Source: a virus
Lineage: Duplodnaviria > Heunggongvirae > Uroviricota > Caudoviricetes
Virus record (IMG/VR): IMGVR_UViG_3300031413_000001
DNA: 64,000 nucleotides
Strand: one strand, 5' to 3'
Program-made: the position numbers and the translations under genes
Shown: in pieces, positions 26,034-63,379 of the stretch
How positions within the stretch are numbered: position 1 is the stretch's first letter
Layout of the letters: the number at the start of each line of letters is the position of its first letter
Notes under the pieces: model-generated
Told to the model about the DNA's origin: nothing
The model's input: the letters and a program-made list of their open reading frames with translations, nothing else
Databases searched by the model: none

Positions 26034-26301
26034 GCCATGCGTTCGTATGGGAGACCGCTGCACCGGCCATGGTGATGCTCCTCCACGTCCCAACGTGCAG
26101 GGAAGCCCCAACGTCTTCATCAATAGCAAGCCAGCACACCGTCAGGGTGATATGTGGGCCGTTCACAAAAACCATCCCAGCAAACTTGCCAGTGGCTCGA
26201 GCACCGTGTTCGTCAATGGCAAGGGCCAGGGCCGTGTGGGAGACCCAGTGTTGTGTGGATCCCGATGCGCCCAAGGTAGCCCAAATGTTTTTGCAGGATA
26301 G
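26026..26301 (+). CDS. PAAR-repeat protein (tail-spike tip, T4 gp5.4-like)
   Basis: 91 aa. Three PAAR-like repeats: GSPNVFINSKPAHRQGD, GSSTVFVNGKGQGRVGD, GSPNVFAG. Confidence 0.7.
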   Translation: MGKPCVRMGDRCTGHGDAPPRPNVQGSPNVFINSKPAHRQGDMWAVHKNHPSKLASGSSTVFVNGKGQGRVGDPVLCGSRCAQGSPNVFAG

Positions 26302-26303
26302 GC

Positions 26304-26332
26304 TTGACAACGAGTAAGCGGCCTACTAGATA
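26304..26332 (+). promoter_or_regulatory. sigma70-like promoter for the tmRNA gene
   Basis: TTGACA (26304-26309), a 17-nt spacer, then TAGATA (26327-26332). Predicted transcription start about 26339. Confidence 0.5.
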
Positions 26333-26339
26333 AGAGATG

Positions 26340-26750
26340 TTGTTGAAGACCAAGACTTAATAGCAAGTAGCGGACCCGGGGGCAGTACCCGGCAGATCCA
26401 CCATAACTGCGCGGCGCTGCCCTGGAAGCTAGCCGCTGCCCTCGAGTAGGGCGGTTATGATGGGTCTGAACCAGGATCGACGTGCGAGCGAACGGTTACG
26501 AGAAGATTGAGCTTCGGCTCATGAAGCGATGACAGGGTGGCTCCTTTAAAGGCCAAAGCATGTAAATGCAAACGACAACACCGTTGTCGAGGCACGTCTG
26601 GCCGCGTAAGCAGCCAGACGAGGTAGGATTGCTTCGGTAGTTCTATCGCGTCTCTTAAATCCCTAGGGGCTCAACTCCCTAGGTGAGGGTATGGCTCCAC
26701 CCGGTAACAGAACGGGCCACCTTTCCCATACAGATTGCATAATTACTAAG
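26340..26750 (+). ncRNA. ssrA: tmRNA (ssrA), apparently circularly permuted two-piece form
   Basis: Tag reading frame 26568-26609: GCA AAC GAC AAC ACC GTT GTC GAG GCA CGT CTG GCC GCG TAA = ANDNTVVEARLAA*. The 5' tRNA-like strand GGGUCUG (26462-26468) is followed by a GGAUCGACG box homologous to E. coli GGAUUCGACGG. The complementary 3' strand CAGAUCC-A-CCA (26393-26403) lies UPSTREAM and is preceded by a T-arm-like hairpin CCGGG-ggcagua-CCCGG (26376-26392). The predicted acceptor stem has a G3:U70 wobble pair, the AlaRS identity element. 3' boundary of the coding piece not determined. Confidence 0.6.
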
Positions 26751-26860
26751 AGACCAGTAATTATAGCTCGCCATATCTCGGTGTCGTAGGGAGCCTGAAA
26801 TACCGCGTGACAGTTAGCCAATTTGGTGCTAGCGGGGTCCGCGCAATACAGGAGTTCTCA

Positions 26861-28567
26861 ATGACACAGACAGATACCCGCCACCACATAACGGTGCAAG
26901 GGTTACTTGTCTGTGGCGTGGGGGATGAGGGTAACGTGGATAAAGCAATCAAATCTGATATTAATATCAAGATGCTTACCGACCTTGCGCCAACCATCAT
27001 TTGGACGCGGGACGCTTCGGGAAAGCTGACATATCTAAACAATTTTTGGTTTGAATTCACGGGCTGTGAATACACATTGATCGATGCTATCCTGTGGAAG
27101 GAGTCCATTCATCCCGATGACATGGATGACCTCCGGGAAAAGCTCAACGAAAGCATGGCGCGTGGCGAGCCATACGAGGCCGAGACGCGCATCAAGCGCC
27201 ATGACGGCGAGTACCGATGGTTTCGCATCGCAACCCGTGCCGTCAAGGATGAAGAAAACAATGTCATGCAGTGGCTGGGTGTTGCTTCCCCCATTCATGA
27301 ACTAAAAATCGCCCAAGAACGCGCCGACGTGGCGCATGATGAATTGGAGCGCATGGTAAAAGAACGCACCCGAGCTCTCGAGGACAGTCAACATCAGGTC
27401 TTGGAAGAGATCAATGCTCGACAGAAAATGGAAGACGCGCTTCGTCAGGCACAGAAGATGGAGTCAGTGGGTCAGCTGACTGGTGGAATTGCACACGATT
27501 TCAATAACATGCTGACGGTTATCATTGGCAACTTGGAGTTGCTGAAGATGAGCGCTCCCAATCTTGGTGACAATCCAGTTGCCAAGCGTATGGACAAGAA
27601 CGTCAACATGGCCATTGAGGCCGCGCTCAAGGCGGAAAAGCTGACGAGCCAGTTGCTGGCATTCTCCCGCAAGGCACGACTCCACCCCGAACGTCTTGAT
27701 GTCAACAAGGTCATCTTGGGCGTAAAGGAAATGGTCGACCGCGCAGTTGGTATCGCGATCACTTGTGAGATCGATCTACAAGACGATGTGTGGCTTTGCT
27801 TGAGCGACAAGACCCAGCTGGAAAGCGCGATCATCAATCTCTCGATCAATGCGCGGGACGCCATGCTGCCCAAAGGCGGTACACTTCGCATCTTCTCGCA
27901 GAACAAGACGATCGGCGATCTCCGCTACGTTAGTGTGGGTGTCAGGGATACTGGCACTGGCATTCCTCCAGAGATCTTGGAAAAGGTCTTTGAGCCATTC
28001 TTCACAACCAAAGATGTGGGCAAGGGAAGCGGTCTTGGACTGTCAATGGTTCACGGCTTCTGCCAGCAAAGCAATGGACGGGTGTTCATTGAAAGCAAGA
28101 TCGGTGAAGGCACCACTGTTGAGATGATCTTTCCCTACACGGCTGGGGAGAGCATTGACAAGGTCCAGGCCGACGAGGACTTCAACTACGACGAGAACAA
28201 GCGCAGCATCCTCGTGGTCGATGATGAGCCCGCGGTTCGTGAGCTGGCCTGTCAGCTACTGACTGATCTGGGCTACAATGTTGTCAGTGCCGAGAATGGA
28301 ACACAGGCAATTGAGTTCTTGGGCGATGACGAGATTCCCATCGATCTGCTCTTCACCGATGTGGTAATGCCCGGTGGTGTTGATGGCTTCCAGGTTGCCA
28401 AGTATGCACAAAGCGTCCGGCCAGGAATGCCCATTATCTTCACCACCGGTCACGCGGAAATCGCGCTCAACGAGTTGAAAAAGGATCTGAGCCAAAAGCT
28501 CAAGGTTATTGGAAAGCCCTACAGGCTCAATGAGTTAAGCCAGACGATTGCCCAAGAGCTTGCTTGA
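26861..28567 (+). CDS. hybrid sensor histidine kinase (PAS/PAC - HisKA - HATPase_c - receiver)
   Basis: AGGAG precedes the ATG at 26861. PAS/PAC domain ([23 protein letters not shown]...[17 protein letters not shown]). H-box [21 protein letters not shown]1, G2 boxes ([25 protein letters not shown]). C-terminal receiver domain ([12 protein letters not shown]...[11 protein letters not shown]...KPY). Confidence 0.85.
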
Positions 28568-30492: not shown

Positions 30493-31146
30493 ATGGACAA
30501 CATCACTGACTTCCTCGTAGCAGGACCCAATACCAGCTTTCTGGTAGCGGGTTGCGTCGTCGCAGCCGTTCTCATTCTCGAGATCGTTCTGCTAATCGTT
30601 GGTCACTCAACGATGATGATGAACGCAGATGTTGACATGACGCTCGACCTCGATGGAAATGGTATCCCCGATTATCTCGAGGGTCACGGTCATCTTGGCG
30701 ACTGGTTCAACCCCGGTCACATTCCCGTAACAATGTTCCTCGTGCTGTTCTGCGGACTACTAGCCCTCTTGGGTTACAGTGGTCAGTGGATCTATCTTGG
30801 ACAAGCGGGACAATTGGCTCCCGCCCTTCTCGCGGTTCCCATCACACTTGTTCCCACACTAGCATTCTCCCGCTGGTTTTCAGTTGGTCTGGCACGTATC
30901 ATCCCACAAGATGAAACAAACGCCATATCAGTTGAAAGTCTCGCGGGTGATGTTGGTGTGTTGACGACTGGGCCCGTACAGGGACGTGATGATTTTGGCA
31001 TGGCACGATTCGCCGACAAGTATGGGGTTGATCATGCCCTAGTAGTCGGTAGTGTTGATGACACGATTATTGAAACGGGCTCAAGCGTTGTGTTAGTTGG
31101 TCCACACCCTGAGAAGAGCATCGCTTTTATCATTCGCAAGATCTGA
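30493..31146 (+). CDS. NfeD/YqiJ-like membrane protein (partner of SPFH proteins)
   Basis: Multiple TM helices (VAGCVVAAVLILEIVLLIVG, VTMFLVLFCGLLALLG). C-terminal OB-fold-like segment GDVGVLTTGPVQGRDDFGMARF...GSSVVLVG. Immediately upstream of the flotillin gene, matching the E. coli yqiJ-yqiK arrangement. Confidence 0.55.
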   Translation: MDNITDFLVAGPNTSFLVAGCVVAAVLILEIVLLIVGHSTMMMNADVDMTLDLDGNGIPDYLEGHGHLGDWFNPGHIPVTMFLVLFCGLLALLGYSGQWIYLGQAGQLAPALLAVPITLVPTLAFSRWFSVGLARIIPQDETNAISVESLAGDVGVLTTGPVQGRDDFGMARFADKYGVDHALVVGSVDDTIIETGSSVVLVGPHPEKSIAFIIRKI

Positions 31147-31170
31147 TACCCAGATCAACAAGGAGACCCA

Positions 31171-32908
31171 AGTGGGCAATCTTCCCTTTATCGGACTAAT
31201 CGTGGGAGCGGTGATCGTAATCATCCTCCTGTTGGGCTTGCTGGCAGTCAAATTCTACCAGCGCGCAAGCAAGGAACAGGCTTTCGTTCGTACTGGTAAG
31301 GGCGGCCAGAAGGTCGTCAAGGACGGCGGCTCGGTTGTATGGCCGATCATTCAGGAAACCATCCCCATCAATATGCAGACGCTTCGTCTGACTGTTGAGC
31401 GGAAGGCCAAGGACTCGCTGATCACCAAGGATCGTCTCCGCGTTGACGTGAAGGCAGAGTTCTACGTTCGGGTTGCACCGGATGAGCAGAGCATTGCAGC
31501 CGCGGCACAGACGCTGGGCCGACGCACCCTTCAGCCGCAGCTTCTCGCAGAGCTGATTGAAGGCAAGTTCGTCGACGTCCTTCGCGCAGTGGCAGCAGGC
31601 ATGGACATGCAGGACCTTCACACTCAGCGGGCTGACTTCGTGAAGACGGTCAAGACCACTGCGGCAGAGGATCTCAAGGCCAACGGTCTGGAACTGGAGT
31701 CGGTGTCGCTGACCGGGTTGGACCAGACGTCCATCGAGCACTTCAACCCCAACAACGCCTTCGACGCAGAAGGTCTCGCCAAGCTGACCAACGTCACGGA
31801 GACGCGTCGCAAGGAGCGCAATGAAATCGAGCAGACCACGCGAGTGGCCATCGAGGAGCGCAACCTGTCGGCGACCAACCGAAGCCTGGAGCTCAAGCAG
31901 GAAGGCGAGTTCGCCCGCTTGCAGCAGGAGCAGAGCGTTGAAACGCGTTCGGCGGAGCAGGGTGCAAACCTGGCCAAGACCCGTGCTGATCGCCAGCGCG
32001 AGTCGGACATCGCAGCCATCGAGGCAGACCAGGCAACTGAAGCAGCACGGGTGAACAAGACCCGTACGATTCAGATTGCAGAAGCTGAAGCAGCTCGCGA
32101 TCTCGAACTGGCCGGCCAGGATCAGCGCATTCGCGTTGCTGCCAAGTCCCAGGAAGAGTCGGAAGCCCGTGCATCGGCCGATAAGGCACGTGCAATGGCC
32201 GTTGAGGCATCGGAAGCGGTCAAGACCGTGGAAGCAACTGCCCGAGCAGAGCGTGACCAGAAGGTTGCGGTCATTGCAGCAGAGACCGAGGCGCAGCGTG
32301 AGGCAGCTGGTATCAGCATCCGCGCGGAAGCTGAGTTCAAGGCAGCTGACAGCCAGGCAAAGGCTCGTGAGCGACTCATCGACGCCGATGCGAAGAAGTA
32401 CGAGGTTGAGGCCGAGGGTCAGCGCATGATCAACGAAGCAGCCAACACCATGTCGCCTGAGCAGGCAGCACTTCAGATCCGCTTGAAGCTTATCGAACAG
32501 CTTCCGCAGATCCTGGAGCAGATGGGCAAGCCCATCGAGAAGATTGACAGCTTCCGTGTCGTTCACATGAACGGCAGCATGGGCGGTGGTCACTCTTCGG
32601 GTTCGGTCGACGGTGAGACCACCGGCAACAGCGGCGGCAATCTGCCCACGCAGATGACCAACGCACTGCTGGACTATCGCTTGCAGGTTCCCATGGTCGA
32701 GGAAATGGCCAAGGAACTGGGCGTGGATATCTCGCGCGGCATGAACGGCATCGTGGACAGCATCGGCGGGGTCTCCAAGCCGGCCCCCAGTGCAACGCAG
32801 GCTACCAAGCCCGCCCCACGCGGTCACAAGACTGGTGATCCGGACATCATGACCGGGCTGGAGACGGAAAAGCTGCAGAAGCTTGCAGGCATTCACCCCG
32901 AGGGCTAA
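31171..32908 (+). CDS. flotillin-like SPFH/band-7 protein (YqiK-like) with long Ala/Glu/Arg coiled coil
   Basis: AAGGAG precedes the GTG at 31171. N-terminal TM helix, SPFH core (QTLRLTVERKAKDSLITKDRLRVDVKAEFYVRV). About 200 aa of EA/AR-rich coiled coil. Gly-rich C-terminal tail. Confidence 0.8.
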
Positions 32909-33692: not shown

Positions 33693-34856
33693 ATGGTAGA
33701 GACTGTTACGGCAACCGCAGTGGACACTTCCACGCTGATGCCAACCCCGGAACCGATCGGCAGCACGGCACTGGTAAGTCTCGCACCCGCGGGCACTGCA
33801 ATCCAGGTCAGCAAGGTGTCGCCGGAGCGCGCCAAGGAACTGGCGAAGAAGATCAACATTCGCGACACGCAGAGCATCATCGGCTTTGGCGTCGAAGCGC
33901 AGAAGAGCGTGTCGGCCGTTTCGGATCAGATGCTCGACGGCGTCCGCACCAAGGACACTGGCCCGGTCGGTGATTCGCTGAACCTGATGGTTCACGAGAT
34001 GCGCGGCCTGGACTTTGGTTCGCTGAGCCAGAAGCAGGGCTTCATCAGCAAGCTTCTCCGGAAGGCCAGCCGGGTCACGCTGTTCCTGGAGCAGTATGAG
34101 ACCGTGCAGAGCAAGATCAACAAGACGCAGGCCGTCCTGGAAGGTCACCGGGTCAACATGCTCCGCGGCGTGAAGATGCTCGATCTTCTCTACGTGAAGA
34201 CGCTGGAACTTCTCGGTTCGCTCGATGAGCAGGTCGCCGCAGTCCAGTACAAGCTGGAAGAAGTCAACACCATCGATATCCCGCAGGCCAATCAGAAGGC
34301 CCAGGAATCGCAGGACATGGCCGACACCCAGCTGGCCGCGGATCTGATTCAGGCGCGAGATGCACTGGAGCGCAAGCTGCATGATCTCCAGCTGACCCGT
34401 CAGATCACCATCCAGGCACTGCCCAGCATTCGCATCGTGCAGAGCAACGAGATTGGCCTCTCGGAGAAGATCCAGAGCCAGATCCTCAACGCACTGCCAC
34501 TGTGGAAGCGCAACATGGCACTGGCCATCGAAATGGCGAAGACGCAGAACGCCGCGAAGGCAACCAAGGCGGCTTCGGACTTCACCAACGAGCAGCTTCG
34601 TATGGGCAGCGACATGCTCCAGCAGAGCAATCTCGCAGTCCGCAAGGAAGTCGAGCGCGGCATCGTGGACGTGGACAGCGTCAAGTACGCCAACGACAAG
34701 CTGATCCAGACCATCGAGGACACGATCACCATCGCGCAGGAAGGCAAGAACATGCGCGCGGCGGCCGAGACCGAGTTGGCAGCGGCCGAGCAGCAGCTGA
34801 AGCAGACGCTGCTCAGCGCAGCGCAGCGCCAGGCAAACATGAAGGCAATCGCCTAA
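33693..34856 (+). CDS. TelA-like toxic-anion-resistance family protein
   Basis: 387 aa, all-helical. Regions GFGVEAQKSVSAVSDQMLDGVRTKDTGPVGDSLNLMVHEMRGLDF and QILNALPLWKRNMALAIEM are characteristic of TelA/YaaN/KlaA. Confidence 0.7.
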   Translation: MVETVTATAVDTSTLMPTPEPIGSTALVSLAPAGTAIQVSKVSPERAKELAKKINIRDTQSIIGFGVEAQKSVSAVSDQMLDGVRTKDTGPVGDSLNLMVHEMRGLDFGSLSQKQGFISKLLRKASRVTLFLEQYETVQSKINKTQAVLEGHRVNMLRGVKMLDLLYVKTLELLGSLDEQVAAVQYKLEEVNTIDIPQANQKAQESQDMADTQLAADLIQARDALERKLHDLQLTRQITIQALPSIRIVQSNEIGLSEKIQSQILNALPLWKRNMALAIEMAKTQNAAKATKAASDFTNEQLRMGSDMLQQSNLAVRKEVERGIVDVDSVKYANDKLIQTIEDTITIAQEGKNMRAAAETELAAAEQQLKQTLLSAAQRQANMKAIA

Positions 34857-34933: not shown

Positions 34934-35374
34934 ATGAACAAAAGCATCCTCACTGCACTTGCGGGACTTCTCGCGGTAACGACTCCGGCAGCTCTCGCAG
35001 CGCCGTTGAGCACCAACAGCTACGACTATGATGTCGTGGGCATCTACGATGGTGACACCTTCTACATCAAGATGGTCGGCCTTCCCCCAGAGCTCCAGCG
35101 TATTGGTGTCCGCGTCCGCGGCATCGACACTGCGGAAATGAAGGGAAAGTGTCAGAGCGAGAAGAGCACCGCTGCCGGCGCCAAGGCATTCACCACGCGA
35201 ATCCTCAAGCAAGCTGGCAACCGAGTAACGCTCCGGGGTCTCAAGTGGGACAAGTACGGCGGTCGTGTGGATGCTGATGTGTTCGTTGGCGGCGAGAGTC
35301 TCTCCAACATGATGATCACACGTGGATATGCCCGTCCCTACATGGGCGGCAAGCGAGCAGGATGGTGCGAATGA
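34934..35374 (+). CDS. secreted thermonuclease (staphylococcal nuclease/SNase fold)
   Basis: Signal peptide MNKSILTALAGLLAVTTPAALAAP. SNase motifs YDGDTFY, VRVRGIDTAE, KYGGRVDADVFVGG. Confidence 0.75.
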   Translation: MNKSILTALAGLLAVTTPAALAAPLSTNSYDYDVVGIYDGDTFYIKMVGLPPELQRIGVRVRGIDTAEMKGKCQSEKSTAAGAKAFTTRILKQAGNRVTLRGLKWDKYGGRVDADVFVGGESLSNMMITRGYARPYMGGKRAGWCE

Positions 35375-35934
35375 CCGAAGTTTTCGAGTTCTTCTACGGC
35401 GGCTACGCGAGTCAGTGGGCGCCCAGCGATTTCATCATCGGCGGCGTCAAGTATAACTGCGCCGAACAGTACATGATGGCCGAGAAGGCCCGCATGTTCA
35501 ACGACGATGACGCGCTGGAAATCATCATGGGGACCAACAACCCCAAGGTGCAAAAGGCCACCGGTCGGACGGTCAAGAACTTCGACAAGCACAAGTGGGA
35601 CCTGGAGCGAAAGCTGATCGTCTATCGTGCCAATCTCGCCAAGTTCACACAGAACTCCGAGTTCCTCCTGTGGCTCCAGGGAACCAAGGGCCGGACGCTG
35701 GTCGAGGCCAGCCCCTGGGACACCATCTGGGGCATTGGTCTGGGGGCAGAAGATCCTCGGGCACAGAGCCGGAACACCTGGCTGGGAACCAACGATCTAG
35801 GCGAGATCGTCACGCAGGTCCGTGAGGACATTGAGTGGATGCACTTCGCACAGGCCGGCACGGACAAGCTCAAGAGGGCCAAGTTCATCGGCGGCACGAT
35901 GGTTCCCATCGGTGATGACGGGCTGCCAAAGTAA
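35371..35934 (+). CDS. NADAR (YbiA-like, DUF1768) domain protein
   Basis: ATGA overlap with the nuclease stop. Motifs FFYGGYASQWAPS, YNCAEQYMMAEKARMFND, LVEASPWDTIWGIGLG. Confidence 0.7.
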   Translation: MTEVFEFFYGGYASQWAPSDFIIGGVKYNCAEQYMMAEKARMFNDDDALEIIMGTNNPKVQKATGRTVKNFDKHKWDLERKLIVYRANLAKFTQNSEFLLWLQGTKGRTLVEASPWDTIWGIGLGAEDPRAQSRNTWLGTNDLGEIVTQVREDIEWMHFAQAGTDKLKRAKFIGGTMVPIGDDGLPK

Positions 35935-42136: not shown

Positions 42137-42514
42137 CTATGTAGCGCGTTTTTTCAGACATACTTCCCAGGCTCCGCCGCCGTTTTTAGGTGTGATCGAT
42201 CTGACTGCGGAGATTCTGTCTGCCCATCGTGGCATCTCAATGTTGATCTGGCCACTCTTGCCGCTGATGATGGTCAACACTTTATAGCCCAGTAGGGCGC
42301 CATTTTCAATATGGTCGCGCACCACCAGAAAAGCTTCTTGAACCGTGAGTCCATGAAGGTCGAGGGTTGGATGATAGGGCACTGCCCTAGGACTGACGAC
42401 CATGGTAAAATGATCGCCAGCAGTGGGACCCACGCGGGCTTGACCCAAGGGCGTTACGTCCTTGGTTGCACGGGACCAGACGTCCCGGTCGGCCTGTGTG
42501 AGTCCCATGATCAA
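42137..42514 (-). CDS. Smr-domain protein
   Basis: LDLHGLTVQEAFLVV...GYKVLTIISGKSGQ matches the Smr (small MutS-related) domain signature. Confidence 0.65.
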   Translation of the reverse strand: MIMGLTQADRDVWSRATKDVTPLGQARVGPTAGDHFTMVVSPRAVPYHPTLDLHGLTVQEAFLVVRDHIENGALLGYKVLTIISGKSGQINIEMPRWADRISAVRSITPKNGGGAWEVCLKKRAT

Positions 42515-43200: not shown

Positions 43201-43995
43201 ATGGCAAAGTTTCAATCGACCAAGACCTACGGTACTGACCGTGGGCTCTCCTGCTGCTTTAGGCAGTGGAAGGCATCACATAGCCACTGTTCCACTCTTC
43301 ACGGCTACAGCTTGGGCTTCAAGTTCGTATTCGAGAGCGAGACGCTGGATAGCAGGAACTGGGCATTTGACTTCGGTGGTATGAAACCCATCAAGCAATA
43401 CCTGGACAGCATGTTTGACCACACGGTGTTGGTTGCTGAGGATGATCCCGCTCTGGAGTTCTTCAAGACCATGGCTGGCTATTCCACGATGCCTGAGCAC
43501 AATGGCACCAACGAGTCCATTGGCTACTTGAACCCCATTCCCCACGAGGAAGGTCGCATCTGTGCCCTTCGTATCGTGCCCGGCGTGGGTTGTGAGATGA
43601 CAGCCAAGATGGTCTTTGAGGAAGCCAGCAAGATGCTGGAGCAGATGAAGACTGGTGAGAACTCTCGCTATGAGATCAATCCAGACGTACGTCTAGTCTC
43701 CGTGGAATGCTTTGAGCACGGCTCCAACAGTGCGATCTATTATGGCGATGTTCCCAATCGTCAGGTCCATTATGTGGACGTTGAAGGCATTGATGAGTCC
43801 GACATTCAGTATTTCAAGGACCGGCTGGCTCAGGCAATCAAGCGTGGCGACAAGGTCACGTCTGAAAAGACTCAGCAATACTTGGACATTCTAGGTGATG
43901 GTGCTCCCAATCATCCATCGCGGATTGGGGACTTGAGCAAGTTCGAAGATGTGATCTACGACTTGCATAAGATTCCGCCCGTAGACGAAAAGTAA
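43201..43995 (+). CDS. 6-pyruvoyl-tetrahydropterin synthase/QueD-like (T-fold) protein with C-terminal extension
   Basis: N-terminal 120 aa carry the C-x(n)-HGH-x-Y/F motif (CSTLHGYSLGFKFVFES) and the DFGG segment of PTPS/QueD. The remaining about 140 aa are not recognised. Confidence 0.55.
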   Translation: MAKFQSTKTYGTDRGLSCCFRQWKASHSHCSTLHGYSLGFKFVFESETLDSRNWAFDFGGMKPIKQYLDSMFDHTVLVAEDDPALEFFKTMAGYSTMPEHNGTNESIGYLNPIPHEEGRICALRIVPGVGCEMTAKMVFEEASKMLEQMKTGENSRYEINPDVRLVSVECFEHGSNSAIYYGDVPNRQVHYVDVEGIDESDIQYFKDRLAQAIKRGDKVTSEKTQQYLDILGDGAPNHPSRIGDLSKFEDVIYDLHKIPPVDEK

Positions 43996-44008
43996 GACTG
44001 GCACAAAG

Positions 44009-44042
44009 AACCCCGGACAGCTTAGGCCATCCGGGGTTTTTC
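44009..44042 (+). terminator. intrinsic terminator
   Basis: aaccccgga-cagcttaggcca-tccggggtt followed by tttttcc. Confidence 0.75.
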
Positions 44043-44065
44043 CTTGGTTAAGTGATTGGAAACCC

Positions 44066-44605
44066 TTAGTTGCTGCCAGGCAACCTTGCAAACCAATGTG
44101 GTCCAATACGAAATCTATTGATCAATCCACGACCCCAGTTCCTAAGGGAGCCATTGAAGTGTGTTGATCCATTCGTAGGGTCTTTCATCTTATCACCGCT
44201 GAACAAAATGGCTGCTTTGTGTTGACACTCCGCCCATGTTGCTTTGTCCCTCGGTATTAGTGTCCCCGTTGACCTCTTAGTCCAAGAAAACTGACTTTGT
44301 GCCCACACCACTGAGCAAACGTTGTTCGCATGGAACGCGGATCGCTTGGTGCGGTTCAAAGTCACAAATGCGACTGCCCACTGATCGCGGGGGCTTCCCC
44401 CTCTGATTTCATGATAGATGTTAAGTGCCATGCACAACATCTGGTCTTGATCAGCACGATTGGCTTGCTGAAGTTCTGGAATCAGTCCTCCGGCAGATCG
44501 TGTTGCAGCGTGTAGTCCTTGGTATCTAAGGGTTGTCCCTGCTGAGGCTAGGTTGGGCGTCAGCAAAAAGGACAAGAGGAGCACGATTGCTCCTGTAAAT
44601 TTCAA
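44066..44605 (-). CDS. secreted cell-wall hydrolase, SleB/Hydrolase_2 family (candidate lysin)
   Basis: Signal peptide MKFTGAIVLLLSFLLTPNLASA. Motifs ALNIYHEIRGG, AVAFVTLNR and VCSVVWAQSQFSW. Confidence 0.7.
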   Translation of the reverse strand: MKFTGAIVLLLSFLLTPNLASAGTTLRYQGLHAATRSAGGLIPELQQANRADQDQMLCMALNIYHEIRGGSPRDQWAVAFVTLNRTKRSAFHANNVCSVVWAQSQFSWTKRSTGTLIPRDKATWAECQHKAAILFSGDKMKDPTNGSTHFNGSLRNWGRGLINRFRIGPHWFARLPGSN

Positions 44606-44679
44606 CCATCACCTCACATATAGTTGGTCCGATCTTGCCCTCAGTATGCGCTGGGCAACGGCGCGGAGTCAAACAAGAC

Positions 44680-45276
44680 CTAGAGGTCGCGTCGGTCATC
44701 CAAGCTCAACAGTTGTTCTCCCACGACGAGCTTGAAGAGGAGAACATCATTTAGCTTATCAAGATAGAGAAAGGTCCTGGGTTCAGTTACCAGTTTGATC
44801 GGCCCAGAGAGCTTTTCCAATTCGGCAACGTTATCAGGGCGCAATCCCCACTTGGGGTCCTTGAACTCAAACCTGTATCCATACTCTCCGTAGAACTTGC
44901 CCTTGGGCTTTGGACGTGGAAGAGTAAGATGCCAGCATGATCTCTCGACGATGCGTACATGATTGAACGTAAACTTGTGCCTGTGACGGAGAAACCATTG
45001 CAGCATCCGGGGATCGCTGGAAAAGGCATTGAACTGGTATGTTCGCTGGTTGCTCTGAAGAACCATATCAAGATCTTTGAAGCTGTGGTTGATGAGATCC
45101 TTGATCCCCAGCCACTCGCCCCAGTTGGGCAAATCTAACGAAAGTCCAACTCCGTAGGCATATCGTCCAAAGAACAATGGCCTCCGCAGAGTCTCGATCT
45201 GTGTTTCCTCCAGGCACCAACGCCTTACTAGGTCGTCCGTTACCTTATAGATTCTCTGTTCAAAGGTCCAAGGCAT
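44680..45276 (-). CDS. hypothetical protein, distant relative of the FKLxWGG family
   Basis: Internal ATG (MPWTFEQ...) is preferred over the listed start at 45456, which overlaps the convergent gene. Contains RRWCLEET and the C-terminal region DVLLFKLVVGEQ plus a 12-aa tail. Confidence 0.45.
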   Translation of the reverse strand: MPWTFEQRIYKVTDDLVRRWCLEETQIETLRRPLFFGRYAYGVGLSLDLPNWGEWLGIKDLINHSFKDLDMVLQSNQRTYQFNAFSSDPRMLQWFLRHRHKFTFNHVRIVERSCWHLTLPRPKPKGKFYGEYGYRFEFKDPKWGLRPDNVAELEKLSGPIKLVTEPRTFLYLDKLNDVLLFKLVVGEQLLSLDDRRDL

Positions 45277-45373
45277 ATATTCCTGTGTAGCACTGTCTTG
45301 AGTCAAGAACAAGGTATTTAGTCCATTTGACAAGCTGGTTTTTGGTGCTAACAAGGTTTGGAAGGAGAACGAT

Positions 45374-45826
45374 GTGCCACTGCTAGACGAAACGGTATCA
45401 GAGGAAAGCATGAGCTTTCTCGACGAAGCCTCGGCACACTTTCTTCGTGCGATCAAACAGCATTACACACGGGACACGGCCGTGGATGTGATGGAAGCCC
45501 TGTCGCCCATTCTGGGCAAAGACTGGAAGGGTCGCGTCATTTTTGGCATCATGGCCAACAAGTACAAGAACATCCGCAATCTGCGGATCATCAAGAATGT
45601 CAACGATGGCGTGGTGCAAAAGATCAACGCCATCAAGGAAGTCCGTATGTTGACCGGCATCGGTCTCACGGAAGCCAAGAACCTGGTGGAAACGGCATAC
45701 TACCAGCCCATGGATGTGCTGATGAAGACTCCTCCCCAGGACTTCACCTCGCAGGACTGGGACCGCCAGATTCAGACATCAATAACCGTCCTGCGTAATG
45801 CAGGCTTCAGCGTGGAGATCGCATGA
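45374..45826 (+). CDS. protein with ribosomal bL12 (L7/L12) C-terminal-domain-like segment
   Basis: GTG start after GAAGGAGA. KINAIKEVRMLTGIGLTEAKNLVE closely matches the bL12 CTD consensus K(I/V)xVIKxVRxxTGLGLKEAKDLVE. The N-terminal 80 aa are unrelated. Confidence 0.6.
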   Translation: MPLLDETVSEESMSFLDEASAHFLRAIKQHYTRDTAVDVMEALSPILGKDWKGRVIFGIMANKYKNIRNLRIIKNVNDGVVQKINAIKEVRMLTGIGLTEAKNLVETAYYQPMDVLMKTPPQDFTSQDWDRQIQTSITVLRNAGFSVEIA

Positions 45827-46065
45827 GTATTCTTGCCAAGGTCCGAAAGGACATGATGACTTCCGGTCACTCGGAAGCGGAAGCATTTTCCCAGGGTGGT
45901 CTCCAGGCCATCTTCGACGACCTGCAGAATCTTCGGCGGGAACGCAACACGGCAAAGCGTGAGGCGCTGACCAAGCTGGACGCCGATTACAACGAGGCGG
46001 AAGTCTCGCTGGAACGTCGCTATGCGATGATGATGAAACTCTCCGCTCGCAATAGCGACAAGTAA
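45823..46065 (+). CDS. hypothetical protein
   Basis: 80-aa ORF, ATGA-coupled. Confidence 0.45.
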   Translation: MSILAKVRKDMMTSGHSEAEAFSQGGLQAIFDDLQNLRRERNTAKREALTKLDADYNEAEVSLERRYAMMMKLSARNSDK

Positions 46066-46077
46066 CAGGGGTCCAAG

Positions 46078-47418
46078 ATGAGCGACAACAAGGCAATCAA
46101 GTTTCCCGATCGGCACTACGTGGGCTTTCAGGCTCGCCCCAGTCACGATGAGCTGCCTCTGGGGTTCATGACCCCGGACGGCACGGACAGTGCTGCGGTC
46201 AAGCGCAAGGGCACGGTCGATCGCTGGGCAGAGAGTGGCGGCTATTATGGTCGCAACGAAGCCCAGGACAAACTGCCGGCGCAGAGCTACGAGAACAAGC
46301 CGCTGGCTGGTTTCAAGCTGGGTCAGAATGTTCGGCACGGTTACGGCTGGGGACAGGGTAACGTCAAGTGGCGCATCGCCGATCCGCGCGGCTTTGAACT
46401 GGAGATCACCAGTCCCAATTTCGCCCAGCTGATCGGCTTCTGCACGATCCAGGAAGGCGAGATCCTCGAGGACTGCATCTGGGCTCGACTGGGTGCCGAC
46501 AACGTGCTGGTTCCCGTCAACAGCGACGTCTATCGCGCAACTGTTCGGAACACCGAGCGGGTGAAGAAGTCGGCATCCATGCGGGACATCAAGATCGGCG
46601 ACAGCGCGGTCTTGCAGAATGGCGACGAGGGCATCTACTATGGCGCCTTCTACGTTGCCTCCATCGATCGCTATTCCAACGGGCTGGGTCACAACCTCAA
46701 CAGCACGGGCAAAAAGCGCCACGTGTTCCTGATGCAGCAGCCGGGCGCTGATGGCGTGAGCAGCGTCAAGTTCTTCAAGGCCATGCCCACTCCCAAGCTG
46801 AGCGAGGTCTTCGAAGCTGAAACGCCGCTCACGCATACCGAGGCCGAGAAGGAAGTTAACCGGCTGATCCAGACGGGCATCAAGCTCAACGAGAGCGGGG
46901 CCAACTATCAGGAAGCTATCGGGGTCTCCATCGAGGAGATGAGCATCAGCGACTTCACGCAAACGGAGGAGCCCTGCACGTACCAGACGCTGCTCGACGA
47001 TGCGCTTGCGATCAGCCCCGAACACAAGGACAACATCAGCTATCTGATGCGCTACGTCAGCGAGGGCAACGTGTTCGGCGTCTACAACGGAAAGCTGGTT
47101 CAGATTGATCTCTACGATGTGGAGAACAAGAAGACGATCGTGCCGGGCGGCTCCACCCATCATCCACAGTACCACGGCGGAAAGCCCCAGTTCTGGACGG
47201 CCAAGTTCGCTTGGGTGGACGTGGCCAAGTTCCAGGCAACCGGTGAACTGGCCCCAGTGGTCAGGTCGGCCACTCAGGGCACTGGCTACTTCTCGCGGCA
47301 GTACAATGAGACGGTCTGTGAAGACTTTGATGTGTCCACCGACACGTTGCCCGATCTATTCCGTTACCGCATGAACGCCAAGACCACTGCGGGCGCGGAT
47401 GTGGTCTTTTACCGGTAA
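46078..47418 (+). CDS. hypothetical protein
   Basis: 446 aa with balanced composition. The antisense 467-aa ORF is judged a shadow because of its Leu/Ala/Arg/Val bias. Confidence 0.6.
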   Translation: MSDNKAIKFPDRHYVGFQARPSHDELPLGFMTPDGTDSAAVKRKGTVDRWAESGGYYGRNEAQDKLPAQSYENKPLAGFKLGQNVRHGYGWGQGNVKWRIADPRGFELEITSPNFAQLIGFCTIQEGEILEDCIWARLGADNVLVPVNSDVYRATVRNTERVKKSASMRDIKIGDSAVLQNGDEGIYYGAFYVASIDRYSNGLGHNLNSTGKKRHVFLMQQPGADGVSSVKFFKAMPTPKLSEVFEAETPLTHTEAEKEVNRLIQTGIKLNESGANYQEAIGVSIEEMSISDFTQTEEPCTYQTLLDDALAISPEHKDNISYLMRYVSEGNVFGVYNGKLVQIDLYDVENKKTIVPGGSTHHPQYHGGKPQFWTAKFAWVDVAKFQATGELAPVVRSATQGTGYFSRQYNETVCEDFDVSTDTLPDLFRYRMNAKTTAGADVVFYR

Positions 47419-47424
47419 TGACTT

Positions 47425-47450
47425 GGGGAGCGGATGTCCGCTCCCCATTT
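47425..47450. terminator. bidirectional intrinsic terminator between convergent genes
   Basis: ggggagcgg-atgt-ccgctcccc, flanked by t-rich sequence on the + side. Confidence 0.65.
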
Positions 47451-47454
47451 GCCC

Positions 47455-48807
47455 TTAAAACTTTACCTTCTTCAAGGCCTCTACTTCTTCGCGGTAGAGG
47501 TCTTTTCGTACCTGTGGATCCTTCAAGATCCTGTTGTACTCCTTGATGTTGGCCTTTAGTTCCTTGATCTTGTCTAGGACCTGCTGATATGCGTCCTTGG
47601 TCCAACGATGGGCCGGTAGGTTGACGATGCGGTCGATTCGCTTGTCATCCAGCTTGAGCTTGATCGTTACCTTGTTGACATCTTGATCCAGTTCCACTCG
47701 GCTCTTGATCGCACCCAAGCGCGCTGGCAGTTTGTCATCAAAGCATAGCTTGACACCTTCCCAGAAGCCCAGCTCGTAGCTGTCCTTGTCAACCTTGTTC
47801 TGATAGCGTGTTGCGTACCAGTTCAAACGCCATGCCACAAAGTCCTCGACAACCTTCTCGGCGTTCTCATACTGACGGATTGCCTTGCCGTTCCAGTCGA
47901 TGACCACGATGCGCTCGCTCTTCTTCTGGCGTAGCTTGAAGTAGTCAATGATCTTGGCCTGGTCCCAGCCCTTTACCGCACCACGTGCCATCTTGACCGT
48001 GATGTCGATGGTGTCTGTGGAGCGATCAGTGTAGGTGCTGATCTTGCCATCGTCCTCGAATGTGTTGAGTCGTTCCTTGAACTTTTCCAGTGTGAGCTCT
48101 GGCGGCAACTCGGTGATCTTAACCGTCGAAGTGTCGAGGACCTCAGCCTTGCCAGTGAACTCCCAGGAGTTTTCCTCAAGGTGCTGAACGCCAACGTTGT
48201 AGAGTTCGTATGCTGGTGGAATCCTCTTGAGCTTTTTACCGTCTAGGACGTCCAGCGTGGCCTGAATCAAGCTCTTAAAGCTGCGGGGCAAGATCTCCGT
48301 TGACCAGCCCACAGCGATGCCGGAAACACCGTTTAGAAGCACAGTGGGGATCAGGGGGAGAAAGTGCTGCGGCTCAATTGTGGAGCCGTCGTAGTTTTCC
48401 TTGGTTGGCACAATGTCCATGTCGGGGAACATCAGTTCCATTGCTGCCTTGCCACGCTTGACGTATGTGTAGCGAGGAGCACCAATACCATCAACGGGAG
48501 CCACGCGAGTACCAAACGATCCAATGCCATCTAGAAGTGGCACGTTGTTGACATAAGGAGCGGCCAGCATGGAGATCGAACCGGCCGCCGAGGCGTCGCC
48601 GTGAAGATACAATCCGCTGCTGATCATCTCACCTGCCAGCGAGACTGTCTTGATCTTTTCACTCTTGCCCTTGACAAGCCAGAGTGCTTTGCGTTGTGCG
48701 TCCTTTAGACCGTCGGCAACCTTGGGGATTGCGCGGCTTTCGCAAACGTAGATGGAATATTCTCGACTGGTGTCTAGGATATAATTGGATGAGCTATTTT
48801 GGGTCAT
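47455..48807 (-). CDS. DNA topoisomerase II, GyrA/ParC-N-terminal-like subunit (T4 gp52-like)
   Basis: 450 aa. YSIYVCESRAIPKVADGLKDAQRKALW; active-site Tyr region PRYTYVK; tower/winged-helix segments. Confidence 0.85.
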   Translation of the reverse strand: MTQNSSSNYILDTSREYSIYVCESRAIPKVADGLKDAQRKALWLVKGKSEKIKTVSLAGEMISSGLYLHGDASAAGSISMLAAPYVNNVPLLDGIGSFGTRVAPVDGIGAPRYTYVKRGKAAMELMFPDMDIVPTKENYDGSTIEPQHFLPLIPTVLLNGVSGIAVGWSTEILPRSFKSLIQATLDVLDGKKLKRIPPAYELYNVGVQHLEENSWEFTGKAEVLDTSTVKITELPPELTLEKFKERLNTFEDDGKISTYTDRSTDTIDITVKMARGAVKGWDQAKIIDYFKLRQKKSERIVVIDWNGKAIRQYENAEKVVEDFVAWRLNWYATRYQNKVDKDSYELGFWEGVKLCFDDKLPARLGAIKSRVELDQDVNKVTIKLKLDDKRIDRIVNLPAHRWTKDAYQQVLDKIKELKANIKEYNRILKDPQVRKDLYREEVEALKKVKF

Positions 48808-48868
48808 TGAGATGCCTCTGATTTATCGTGCATTTTACTTATTGCACGACACCAGAGTCAATAACTGG

Positions 48869-49075
48869 TTAGCCCCAGACCAGTTTGAACATCACTGCCT
48901 TGGAGGGGTCGCGGAACATCCAGCCAAAATGACTTGCCATCCCATATGGCGTTCCATAAAAGACATAATCGTCGCGGGTCCAGCCCTGTTCTTTGAACCA
49001 CTTCTCTATGTCTTGGCGTGTGATCCAACAACCATCGCGCAGCATACAGATGTCAACGACTTCTAGGTCGGTCAT
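48869..49075 (-). CDS. FKLxWGG family small protein (array copy 1)
   Basis: C-terminus FRDPSKAVMFKLVWG; ATGA overlap with copy 2. Confidence 0.55.
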   Translation of the reverse strand: MTDLEVVDICMLRDGCWITRQDIEKWFKEQGWTRDDYVFYGTPYGMASHFGWMFRDPSKAVMFKLVWG

Positions 49076-55835: not shown

Positions 55836-55927
55836 AAACAGTGCTACGGAGGAAGAAGCGGAATTCCTAATCTTCCCGAGACACGCAACCTCGCGATGCG
55901 CGATCTTTTGATTAGGAGAATACCTTG

Positions 55928-56353
55928 ATGGCTAAACTGCACAAGCACCTCATTGTACATGCCGCTGTTGACAAACCACCCGTTAAAAAGGACGAACGGT
56001 TTGTAGAGCAGTGGCTTACAGATATCGTTCACGCAATGGGAATGGAAGTTCTAAAGGACGCCAGCGCAGAATACTGCGAGCAAATTGGCAACCGCGGAAT
56101 GACCGCAGTGGTTCTTATCACCACTTCCCACATGGTGCTTCATACTTGGGATGAGTGCGAACAGCCATTCATCGAGTTTGACCTCTACACCTGCAGCGAA
56201 TTGGATCCAGAGATGGCATTCAAGGCCCTGGAGGCGTTTGGTGCCAAGAACATTTCCTACAAGTTCCTGGATCGTTACGACGGTCTGACGGATCTGACTC
56301 CAGTGGTCAAGAAGACCTTCTGGGAGAAGCTCAAGGATCTCTTCAGCTTCTGA
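55928..56353 (+). CDS. S-adenosylmethionine decarboxylase proenzyme (small bacterial/archaeal AdoMetDC type)
   Basis: AGGAGA lies 8 nt before the ATG at 55928. Motifs LIVHAA, GMTAVVLITTSHMVLHTWDE (processing-site Ser-His region) and IEFDLYTC. Confidence 0.65.
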   Translation: MAKLHKHLIVHAAVDKPPVKKDERFVEQWLTDIVHAMGMEVLKDASAEYCEQIGNRGMTAVVLITTSHMVLHTWDECEQPFIEFDLYTCSELDPEMAFKALEAFGAKNISYKFLDRYDGLTDLTPVVKKTFWEKLKDLFSF

Positions 56354-57952: not shown

Positions 57953-59206
57953 ATGAGTGAAAAGAAGAATCTGAGCTGCTCTTTTTGTGGTAAGAAGCAA
58001 GAAGCCGTTCAGAAGCTGATTGCTGGTCCGGATGTCTTTATCTGTAACGATTGTGTTCAGCTCTGTGCCGATATCCTAAAGGAAGACGACAACACGGCAA
58101 CCAAGATGCCGGTAAAGGATGGGGCCATTCCCAGCCCTCGTACCATTCGTGAGTTTCTCGATCAGTATGTGATCGGCCAGGAAGCTGCCAAGATGGTCAT
58201 GAGCGTGGCGGTCCACAACCATTACAAGCGGTTGGCCAATCCAGTGGTTGATGATGTTGAGCTCGAGAAGTCCAACATTCTCCTACTGGGCCCAACGGGC
58301 AGCGGTAAGACACTTATGGCAAAGAGCATTGCCAAGCTACTGGATGTTCCCTTTACTATCGCAGACGCCACCAGCCTAACTGAGGCGGGCTATGTGGGTG
58401 ACGATGTTGAAACCATCATCACTCGATTGCTGCAGGTTTGCGACAACGATGTGTCCAAGGCGGAACGCGGCATCATCTACCTCGACGAGGTGGACAAGAA
58501 GGCCAAGAAGAGTGAAGGCTCCAGCGTTAGCAGGGACGTATCGGGCGAAGGCGTTCAGCAGGCACTCCTGAAGATCATCGAAGGCTCAGAAGTTCGTGTT
58601 CCCGTACAGGGCAACCGAAAGCATCCCAACAGCGAGATGGTGGTTGTAAATACCAAGAACATCCTGTTTATCGTTGGTGGTGCATTCGTTGGTCTTGATG
58701 AGATCATTGGAAAGCGCCTCAACAAGGGCAAGGGCGGAATTGGCTTTGGTGCATCTGTTAAGTCGGACATTGACAAGGATGTATCCAGTGCCCTCTTGAG
58801 CCAGGTTGAGCCAGAGGATCTTACCAAGTATGGTCTGATTCCTGAAATGGTTGGCCGTCTCCCAGTTATCACACACTTGGAGGAGTTGGACCAGGACCAG
58901 TTGGTCAAGGTTCTCACTGAGCCCAAGAACGCGCTTATCAAGCAGTTTGAGAAGATCTTCCAGCTGGAAGATGTCAAGCTGGACTTTGACAAGGAAGCCC
59001 TTCGTGCCATTGCCAAGGACGCTATCACTCGGAAGACGGGTGCTCGTGGTCTGCGGTCCGTTATTGAAAAGCGGTTGATCCGCGTTCAATATGACCTCCC
59101 TGACCTTAAGGAAGCTGGAGCAACAGCTATCCGCGTGGGCAAGGATGTCATTGAAGGAAAGAGCGAGCCACTGGTGGTCTATGACCCCAAGGCAGCAAAC
59201 GAGTAA
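57953..59206 (+). CDS. clpX: ATP-dependent Clp protease ATP-binding subunit ClpX
   Basis: Zinc-binding CSFCGK...CNDC. Walker [16 protein letters not shown] pore loop. Walker [10 protein letters not shown]. Sensor/IGF region RVPVQG...; C-terminal SRGLR. Confidence 0.9.
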
Positions 59207-59272: not shown

Positions 59273-59794
59273 GTGAACTCTCAGTATGCGGTAAACGACC
59301 AAATTCGGGCAAGGGAGGTTCGCCTCATTGCCGACAACGGTGATCAGTTGGGCGTCATCCCAACCATTGAAGCGCGTCGTCGTGCAACAGTGGCCGGCTT
59401 GGACCTAGTTGCCATCAACATCAGCAATGGTGTTCCAATCTGTAAGATCCTCGACTACGGCAAGTTCAAGTATGAGCAGAGCCGGAAAGAGCGTGAGAAC
59501 GCAAAGAAGAACCGCGAGAGCCGGGTGGAGCTCAAGGAAATTCAGTTGCGGCCGACCACTGATAGCAATGACATTCAGATCAAGGCCAAGAGGGCGCAGG
59601 GCTTCCTGAATGATGGCGACAAGGTAAAGGTCGTGATGAAGTTCAAGGGTCGTGAGATCACCCACTTGGATGTTGGTGCCGACGTTATGGTCAGCTTTAT
59701 CAACGCCCTGACTGATTACAAGCTGGAACGCCCAATCAGTAGAAGTGAGCGCCAGTTGTTTGCCATCATTATGCCGGCTCCCAAAAAGGCATAA
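59273..59794 (+). CDS. infC: translation initiation factor IF-3
   Basis: GTG start. NDQIRAREVRLI, LDLVAI...PICKILDYGKFKYE, KEIQLRPTTDSNDIQIKAKRAQGFLNDGDKVKV...KFKGRE are the canonical IF3 N- and C-domain motifs. Confidence 0.85.
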   Translation: MNSQYAVNDQIRAREVRLIADNGDQLGVIPTIEARRRATVAGLDLVAINISNGVPICKILDYGKFKYEQSRKERENAKKNRESRVELKEIQLRPTTDSNDIQIKAKRAQGFLNDGDKVKVVMKFKGREITHLDVGADVMVSFINALTDYKLERPISRSERQLFAIIMPAPKKA

Positions 59795-63115: not shown

Positions 63116-63379
63116 GTGGGACAGCATTACAACGGAAACGGTCGAGAGATCCACAAGCGGGGTCTAGCCGTTGAAGTCAAGCCAGCTCACAATCCCGAGC
63201 AGGCTCTCAGGAACCTTGACAGTGCAATGAAGACGCTCAAGCGTCGCACCATTCAAGAGGGCCTGATCCGCGATATCCGTCGGAAGGAATTTGCGGAAAC
63301 CAAGGGGCAGATTGCCCGCAAGAAGCGTCAGGATGCGATTCGTCGCTCCAAGAAGCGTCTGCGTCAGCCGGCTGTCTAA
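63116..63379 (+). CDS. rpsU: ribosomal protein bS21-like protein
   Basis: VEVKPAHNPEQALRNLDSAMKTLKRRTIQEGLIRDIRRKEFAETKGQIARKKRQDAIRRSKKR parallels the bS21 pattern V.V..NE..ALRRFK...K.G.L.E.RRREFYEKP...RKR...A..R..KK. Has a 15-aa N-terminal extension. Confidence 0.55.
   Translation: MGQHYNGNGREIHKRGLAVEVKPAHNPEQALRNLDSAMKTLKRRTIQEGLIRDIRRKEFAETKGQIARKKRQDAIRRSKKRLRQPAV

Follow-up and report, generated by a model that had tools for sequence, protein, structure and literature searches.

A 64,000-nt window of DNA, taken from the IMG/VR virus record IMGVR_UViG_3300031413_000001 (Caudoviricetes), was found to encode a 150-amino-acid (aa) protein that carries a genuine C-terminal domain (CTD) of bL12, a protein from the ribosomal stalk, with the factor-binding helices intact, behind an N-terminal domain specific to its own family. 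We propose, with about even confidence, that the CTD binds host translational GTPases while the N-domain tethers this head to a partner, and that the protein would recruit or re-direct translation factors instead of serving as a canonical stalk subunit. The gene, its start signal and the parts of its product are as follows.

45374-45826, plus strand: bL12-like gene, 150 aa, GTG start, stop included (from the list of open reading frames, ORFs)
45360-45367, plus strand: Shine-Dalgarno-like GGAAGGAG, 6 nt 5' of the GTG start (read from the sequence)
45374-45577, plus strand: N-domain, a family-specific three-helix bundle, residues 1-68 (helices 10-30, 33-47 and 49-60)
45578-45823, plus strand: complete bL12 CTD fold, residues 69-150
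45620-45691, plus strand: helix 4-turn-helix 5 motif KINAIKEVRMLTGIGLTEAKNLVE at residues 83-106, the counterpart of E. coli bL12 K65-E88, where bL12 binds translational GTPases

The bL12-type C-terminal domain

The motif KINAIKEVRMLTGIGLTEAKNLVE is identical to E. coli bL12 K65-E88 at 15 of 24 positions, and E. coli bL12 aligned to the gene by tblastn with 61.5% identity over 26 aa. The Pfam family PF00542 (Ribosomal_L12) matched the window protein at E 1.6e-8 and 35.2 bits (cut-off 25.9), a match that spans profile positions 11-37 of 67 only. A family alignment of 41 diverse members (24% mean column identity) was built from close homologs, a profile search of 1.84e9 representatives, and gp509 of Sinorhizobium phage Phosso, and every one of the 41 members matched PF00542. 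When this alignment was compared by hhalign with four PDB-verified bL12 sequences, the probability was 97% (E 8e-11). The 18 best matches of the family profile among all PDB sequences were bL12 chains without exception (best E 1.4e-7). These scores put the resemblance well outside chance. A first-pass annotation, made from the DNA letters, had likened these residues to the factor-binding helix-turn region of the bL12 CTD, and both the identity count and the profile comparisons agree with it.

AlphaFold2 run on the family alignment gave a mean predicted local distance difference test score (pLDDT) of 83, with residues 69-149 mostly above 90. The predicted topology of the C-terminal part is exactly that of the bL12 CTD: strand 1 at 69-74, helix 4 at 83-94, helix 5 at 98-107, strand 2 at 113-116, helix 6 at 126-142 and strand 3 at 145-149. 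In a Foldseek comparison of the model, the top ranks went to 1dd3_A (full-length T. maritima L12) and 1ctf (E. coli). The first-pass annotation had limited the similarity to the helix-turn-helix, which proved too narrow, as the whole C-terminal 82 residues are predicted to fold as a bL12 CTD. Its stated worry, a helix that does not fold like this domain, is answered by the same model and the Foldseek ranking.

Helices 4 and 5 of bL12 reportedly bind translation factors, as Kothe and co-workers are said to have found in 2004. Conservation of the CTD in the family is concentrated on these helices. The positions at least 90% conserved among the 41 members are K83, I84, I87, K88, R91, L98, K102, E106 and G144; eight of them correspond to E. 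coli bL12 K65, V66, I69, K70, R73, L80, K84 and E88, and G144 lies outside helices 4 and 5. The strands and helix 6 drift freely across the family. PMC3299993, citing Helgstrand et al. 2007, places the binding of IF2, EF-Tu, EF-G and RF3 on helices 4 and 5. The conserved residues form the pattern that would be expected if the factor-binding face were still in use. The CTD also gave weak matches to five PHROGs without known function.

A role outside translation was considered, in which the bL12/ClpS-type alpha/beta fold serves as a generic protein-protein module, for example as a ClpS-like adaptor that would work with the phage ClpX, or to recruit EF-Tu to a non-ribosomal phage process. Identity to ClpS, the N-degron adaptor of ClpAP, was 4-14%, against 26-33% to bL12, and the ClpS Pfam family matched none of the 41 members at E<=10. 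The conserved residues are the bL12-specific ones, and ClpS partners with ClpA, not ClpX. The ClpS-like adaptor was rejected on sequence, and we regard a non-translation role as a whole as quite unlikely.

A further relative of the motif is found in EF-Ts. Wieden and co-workers are said to have reported in 2001 that the EF-Ts N-terminal domain shares a bL12 helix 4/5-like EF-Tu-binding motif, and the EF-Ts and bL12 motifs both contact helix D of EF-Tu. The family profile matched EF-Ts (1aip_C) weakly, at E 0.061. The EF-Ts motif sits in a small all-helical domain, whereas that of the window family lies within a full bL12 alpha/beta domain.

The bL12-like ORF is a real gene under purifying selection. 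A database search returned 28 full-length homologs at 47-100% identity, including an identical copy on a 463,863-bp contig, with other homologs on contigs of 125-480 kb. Compared with an 87%-identical homolog by the Nei-Gojobori method, the ratio of nonsynonymous to synonymous substitution rates (dN/dS) was 0.13 overall, with the N-domain (residues 1-68) at 0.04 and the CTD (residues 69-150) at 0.22. The GTG start can be taken as fixed because residues 1-12 are conserved in homologs and a 73%-identical homolog also begins with GTG. Competing ORFs over the gene (45358-45798, plus strand; 45772-47175, minus strand) were without support. A promoter and terminator scan of 44000-48900 gave counts that were not above shuffled expectation.

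The N-domain and the comparison with canonical bL12

The three N-domain helices were predicted at pLDDT 73-84. This domain is the best-conserved part of the protein among close relatives, with the consensus LDEASAxFLRAIKQHYTRDTAVDVMEALxPILGKDWKGRVIFG and, within it, the motifs YTRDT and LGKDWKGR. Residues F23, L43, L47, G48 and W51 persist across all 41 members. A profile of the N-domain only, searched against the 1.84e9 representatives, gave 50 matches. In most of these the domain sits N-terminally in a protein of 129-186 aa, and the L12 motif KIxxIKxxRxxTGxGLxEAK was present in all 34 sequences of this size class that were retrieved. The exceptions among the 50 were one 75-aa sequence consisting of the N-domain only and about 10 long repeat proteins that matched an LGxDW-like repeat only. 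Because the N-domain is almost always found together with the L12 motif, the two domains form a fixed pair.

No match to the N-domain was found among Pfam, PHROG or PDB sequences. The Pfam family for the bL12 N-terminal domain (NTD), PF16320, matched none of 24 N-domains and one of 41 full-length members, the single match being at noise level (E 0.036). Aligned alone with the bL12 NTD by hhalign, the N-domain reached a probability of 6.5%, in a register that differs from that of the near-global alignment. A hidden Markov model (HMM) of the bL12 NTD returned noise only, the same as a reversed-sequence control. The idea that the N-domain is a diverged bL12 NTD followed by a helical hinge was tried on these three comparisons, and homology was not demonstrated. 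The earlier statement that the N-terminus lacks bL12 features therefore held up, but the length given for it, 80 aa, did not; the domain measures about 68 aa.

Other canonical bL12 traits were also missing. No flexible hinge rich in Ala, Pro or Gly was present: helix 3 ends at residue 60, strand 1 begins at 69, and the 8-residue linker between them, ANKYKNIR, has no Ala/Pro run. The bL12 equivalog TIGR00855 scored 29 bits against a cut-off of 84.4, with only positions 69-95 of 125 matched. Judged from its sequence, the protein is not a bL12 in the sense of membership, because NTD homology, hinge and TIGR00855 all fail. Compared with bL12 (PF00542; PDB 1ctf, 1dd3, 8yeq), the family shares the CTD fold and the helix 4/5 residues, but the window protein lacks the NTD hairpin for dimerisation and uL10 binding as well as the hinge, and its gene is phage-encoded and lies outside any rplJ-rplL operon.

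These results bear on the possibility of stalk replacement: the protein would take the position of bL12 in the host 50S stalk through an N-domain acting as a diverged uL10-binding module, and factor recruitment on such phage-modified ribosomes would change. By near-global hhalign and by Foldseek the protein is collinear with bL12, and the best Foldseek match, full-length T. maritima L12, extends over 149 columns that include the helical N-terminus and hinge. The bL12 hinge can form a compact helix (PMC3299993). However, the N-domain gave no significant sequence signal to the bL12 NTD and two methods picked different registers; helices align trivially in 3Di space, and the rmsd (root-mean-square deviation) of the Foldseek superposition was 13.7 Å. 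The missing hinge and the TIGR00855 score also speak against it. Results on other phage proteins point both ways. The bL12-domain protein of Salmonella phage SP-076 was found in E. coli 70S ribosomes by one mass spectrometry peptide, yet a tagged viral bL12 protein did not pull down ribosomes (both PMC6375957). Taken together, we consider replacement of bL12 in the stalk improbable.

Phage proteins with bL12 domains were described by Mizuno et al. 2019 (PMC6375957), who found many of them fused to unrelated sequence, acquired repeatedly, and with the residues that contact EF-G, EF-Tu and uL11 kept. Their examples include proteins of about 100 aa that consist of the domain only (Ralstonia phage RSB3, Dinoroseobacter phage DFL12phi1) and proteins of 418-724 aa that contain it (Salmonella phage FSL SP-058/076, Erwinia phage Ea9-2). 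The window family is likewise phage-encoded, with a PF00542 domain that keeps contact residues and a non-homologous flank. It differs in that the phages of Mizuno et al. have genomes below 80 kb and other flanking sequences, whereas the window family occurs in megaphages of ~460-480 kb and has a fixed two-domain architecture of 130-190 aa, an N-domain of its own and a partner gene that is conserved.

Al-Shayeb et al. 2020 (PMC7162821) also count L7/L12 as one of the translation genes of huge phages, and gp556 of the 471.5-kb Sinorhizobium jumbo phage AP-J-162 was named '50S ribosomal protein L7/L12' in a genome that also has S21, IF-3 and tmRNA (PMC11242549). Both papers name the gene from an annotation match only, and describe neither how its domains are arranged nor that NTD and hinge are missing, nor the partner gene or the conservation across the family. 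AP-J-162 and Phosso share a host genus and are close in size (471.5 and 469.5 kb), with S21, IF-3 and tmRNA in the same relative order. Very probably gp556 is orthologous to Phosso gp509 and the window gene. The kind of protein is therefore already known; what is added here is the fold of the full domain, an N-domain that is exclusive and highly constrained, the lack of both NTD and hinge, an obligatory partner gene and the restriction to this megaphage lineage.

The partner gene and the proposed role

The bL12-like gene is the first of a co-directional array, followed by a gene of ~80 aa and one of 446 aa.

45823-46065, plus strand: ~80-aa partner gene; ATG overlaps the bL12-like stop codon (ATGA)
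46078-47418, plus strand: 446-aa gene, third in the array

The ATGA overlap suggests that the bL12-like and ~80-aa genes may be translationally coupled. HMM searches covered 14 loci: five on IMG/VR viral contigs of 104-465 kb and the others in the window, in Phosso and on metagenomic contigs. At every one of the 14 the ~80-aa gene lay directly 3' of the bL12-like gene. Residues L4, R8, G15, S17 and E18 were invariant in the alignment of its product. The 446-aa gene came next in all 12 loci that extend far enough, and is probably context rather than a specific partner of the bL12-like protein. A topoisomerase subunit A gene converges on the array from its 3' side. Mimicry of helix alpha-8 of uL10 by the ~80-aa protein was tried and rejected (hhalign probability 0.1%; no PDB or Pfam match).

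Under the mechanism we favour, the gene product would be a non-canonical, phage-specific paralogue of bL12. Its helix 4/5 surface would bind host EF-Tu, EF-G, IF2 and RF3 and might also bind the GTPase-associated centre in its uL11 region; such binding is expected because this surface is kept. The rigid, highly constrained three-helix N-domain would hold the factor-binding head on a specific partner, for which the likeliest candidates are the co-translated ~80-aa protein and a site within the translation machinery of the host, singly or together. So tethered, the protein may recruit or re-direct translation factors during infection, alongside the phage IF3, bS21 and tmRNA. Consistent with this proposal, conservation of the CTD at the 90% level falls, but for G144, on bL12 helix 4/5 positions, and genes for IF3, bS21, tmRNA and a CCA-adding enzyme are all within the window.

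An alternative, raised in the first-pass annotation, is a free soluble decoy: an untethered protein that titrates EF-G, EF-Tu or IF2 away from host ribosomes, with a global slow-down or shut-off of translation. The intact factor-binding face would suit such a decoy, as would the small, compact form and the lack of a uL10-binding domain and hinge. A decoy has no need, however, for a strongly constrained extra domain, yet the N-domain has the lowest dN/dS of the protein and, but for one exception, always accompanies the CTD; a partner gene is also conserved alongside. The phage itself also needs translation, carrying as it does IF3, bS21 and tmRNA. The isolated bL12 CTD reportedly binds factors weakly, a result attributed to Helgstrand and co-workers in 2007, and titration of EF-Tu by single CTDs would then need very high expression. 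Because the N-domain is constrained and tied to the CTD and the partner gene is conserved, the evidence suggests a tethered adaptor rather than a loose decoy, and we consider the free decoy unlikely.

Several points weigh against the tethered recruiter. The putative GTPase binding is read solely from residue conservation, and helices 4 and 5 are also core of the domain, so that part of their conservation is structural. The interdomain geometry is uncertain (predicted template-modelling score 0.56 in AlphaFold2), and exposure of the helix 4/5 face depends on it. The candidate partner of ~80 aa showed no similarity to uL10 by hhalign or to any known protein in PDB, Pfam or PHROG. Topoisomerase II subunits, QueD and Smr make the gene neighbourhood mostly one of DNA metabolism rather than translation. 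The hinge gives bL12 its reach on the ribosome (PMC3299993), and its absence would limit the reach that bL12 needs there.

Stalk-dependent defence offers another reading of an intact bL12 CTD. The phage copy might be an anti-defence decoy that intercepts effectors docking on the stalk bL12 CTD, such as Cami1-type CARF-RelE nucleases. The ribosomal stalk captures Cami1, giant phages carry many counter-defence genes, and PDB 8phj (cA4-bound Cami1 with the 70S ribosome) includes a bL12 chain that matches this CTD. PADLOC gave no matches, however, on the gene and its neighbours, and the conserved residues are those of the GTPase-binding face and so do not discriminate. We consider this decoy very unlikely.

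A bolder form of the proposal takes the N-domain and the ~80-aa protein together as a phage-built anchor that places the factor-binding head off the uL10 stalk, on the ribosome or on a phage complex, as a private EF-Tu/EF-G/IF2 platform favouring phage mRNAs, or alternatively as a decoy against stalk-dependent defence nucleases. We give it only a small chance. If the anchor or decoy reading were true, it would constitute a previously undescribed viral rewiring of the GTPase-associated centre; a mere passenger copy of a host domain would be an ordinary finding.

Phage ribosomal proteins are known, but we know of no bL12-type one with a demonstrated mechanism. A specialist would not be surprised by a phage bL12-like protein, and the value of this family is as a tractable case for what such proteins do. 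It is a clean one, being small and two-domain with an intact factor-binding face and an obligatory partner gene, and cultivable representatives exist in Sinorhizobium phage Phosso or AP-J-162 on S. meliloti. Depending on what the N-domain binds, giant phages would be altering the ribosomal stalk, adding a separate module for factor recruitment, or simply sequestering factors.

Phage lineage, translation-related genes and other neighbours

The content of the window is phage-typical, and the region gave no match to known phages at the DNA level. The only isolate with the family is Phosso (469,473 bp), whose gp509 (173 aa, annotated as hypothetical) is 35.6% identical to the window protein over residues 10-107 and has the same synteny. 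The bL12-like gene was also present on the five IMG/VR viral contigs of 104-465 kb, and the family is confined to megaphages of ~460-480 kb of the Phosso type. The window and Phosso have in common the order bL12-like, topoisomerase IV A, topoisomerase large subunit, ClpX, IF-3 and bS21. One homolog was listed on a 958,096-bp contig, with the same protein on a 480,938-bp scaffold; at roughly double the genome size, the longer contig may be a concatemer made in assembly and not a phage of ~1 Mb.

The phage carries a set of translation genes, which in the window, together with ClpX, are the following.

26300-26721, plus strand: two-piece (permuted) transfer-messenger RNA (tmRNA) of alphaproteobacterial type (Rfam RF01849, 90 bits), ARAGORN tag ANDNTVVEARLAA
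39946-41079, plus strand: CCA-adding tRNA nucleotidyltransferase, an auxiliary gene
57953-59206, plus strand: ClpX-type AAA+ unfoldase (zinc finger and AAA_2)
59273-59794, plus strand: full-length IF-3 homolog (IF3_N and IF3_C), 37.5% identical to E. coli IF3 by tblastn
63116-63379, plus strand: bS21 homolog (PF01165 over residues 33-77) with an N-terminal extension of ~30 residues

The host is probably an alphaproteobacterium because of the tmRNA type. The ending of the tag ANDNTVVEARLAA resembles that of Rhizobiaceae tags, and points to an alphaproteobacterial host as well. The IF-3 gene lies directly 3' of the ClpX gene, as in Phosso, and the ClpX gene is itself of note beside a phage tmRNA whose tag ends LAA. 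N-terminal extensions like that of the window bS21 have been seen in S21 proteins of huge phages (Al-Shayeb et al. 2020, PMC7162821).

One gene is transcribed divergently, on the upstream side of the bL12-like gene.

44680-45276, minus strand: divergent 198-aa gene, likely start ATG at 45276

The ORF listed for this gene (44680-45456, minus strand) has 258 aa; it is over-extended and reaches past the point where the bL12-like gene starts. The start is probably at 45276, because gene calls gave 198 aa on the identical contig and 182-203 aa in relatives. The 198-aa product had no family match. The intergenic region between the two genes is 97 bp, and no sigma-70-like promoter was detected in it. 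Further upstream, a homolog of QueD/6-pyruvoyl-tetrahydropterin synthase (43201-43995, plus strand) adjoins an Smr-domain gene (42137-42514, minus strand), and its synteny with the bL12-like gene is kept in all relatives; at 264 aa it is much longer than their 149-219 aa through an insertion and a C-terminal extension.

Other genes in the window were observed in passing. A hybrid sensor histidine kinase (26807-28567, plus strand; PAS, HisKA, HATPase and receiver domains), unusual phage cargo, lies directly 3' of the tmRNA. A flotillin/SPFH-domain protein (31097-32908, plus strand) is encoded near a TelA (toxic anion resistance) homolog (33693-34856, plus strand), both genes of membrane-stress type. 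Auxiliary genes typical of giant phages encode a staphylococcal-nuclease-like protein (34934-35374, plus strand), a NADAR domain protein (35362-35934, plus strand) and an S-adenosylmethionine decarboxylase (55925-56353, plus strand).
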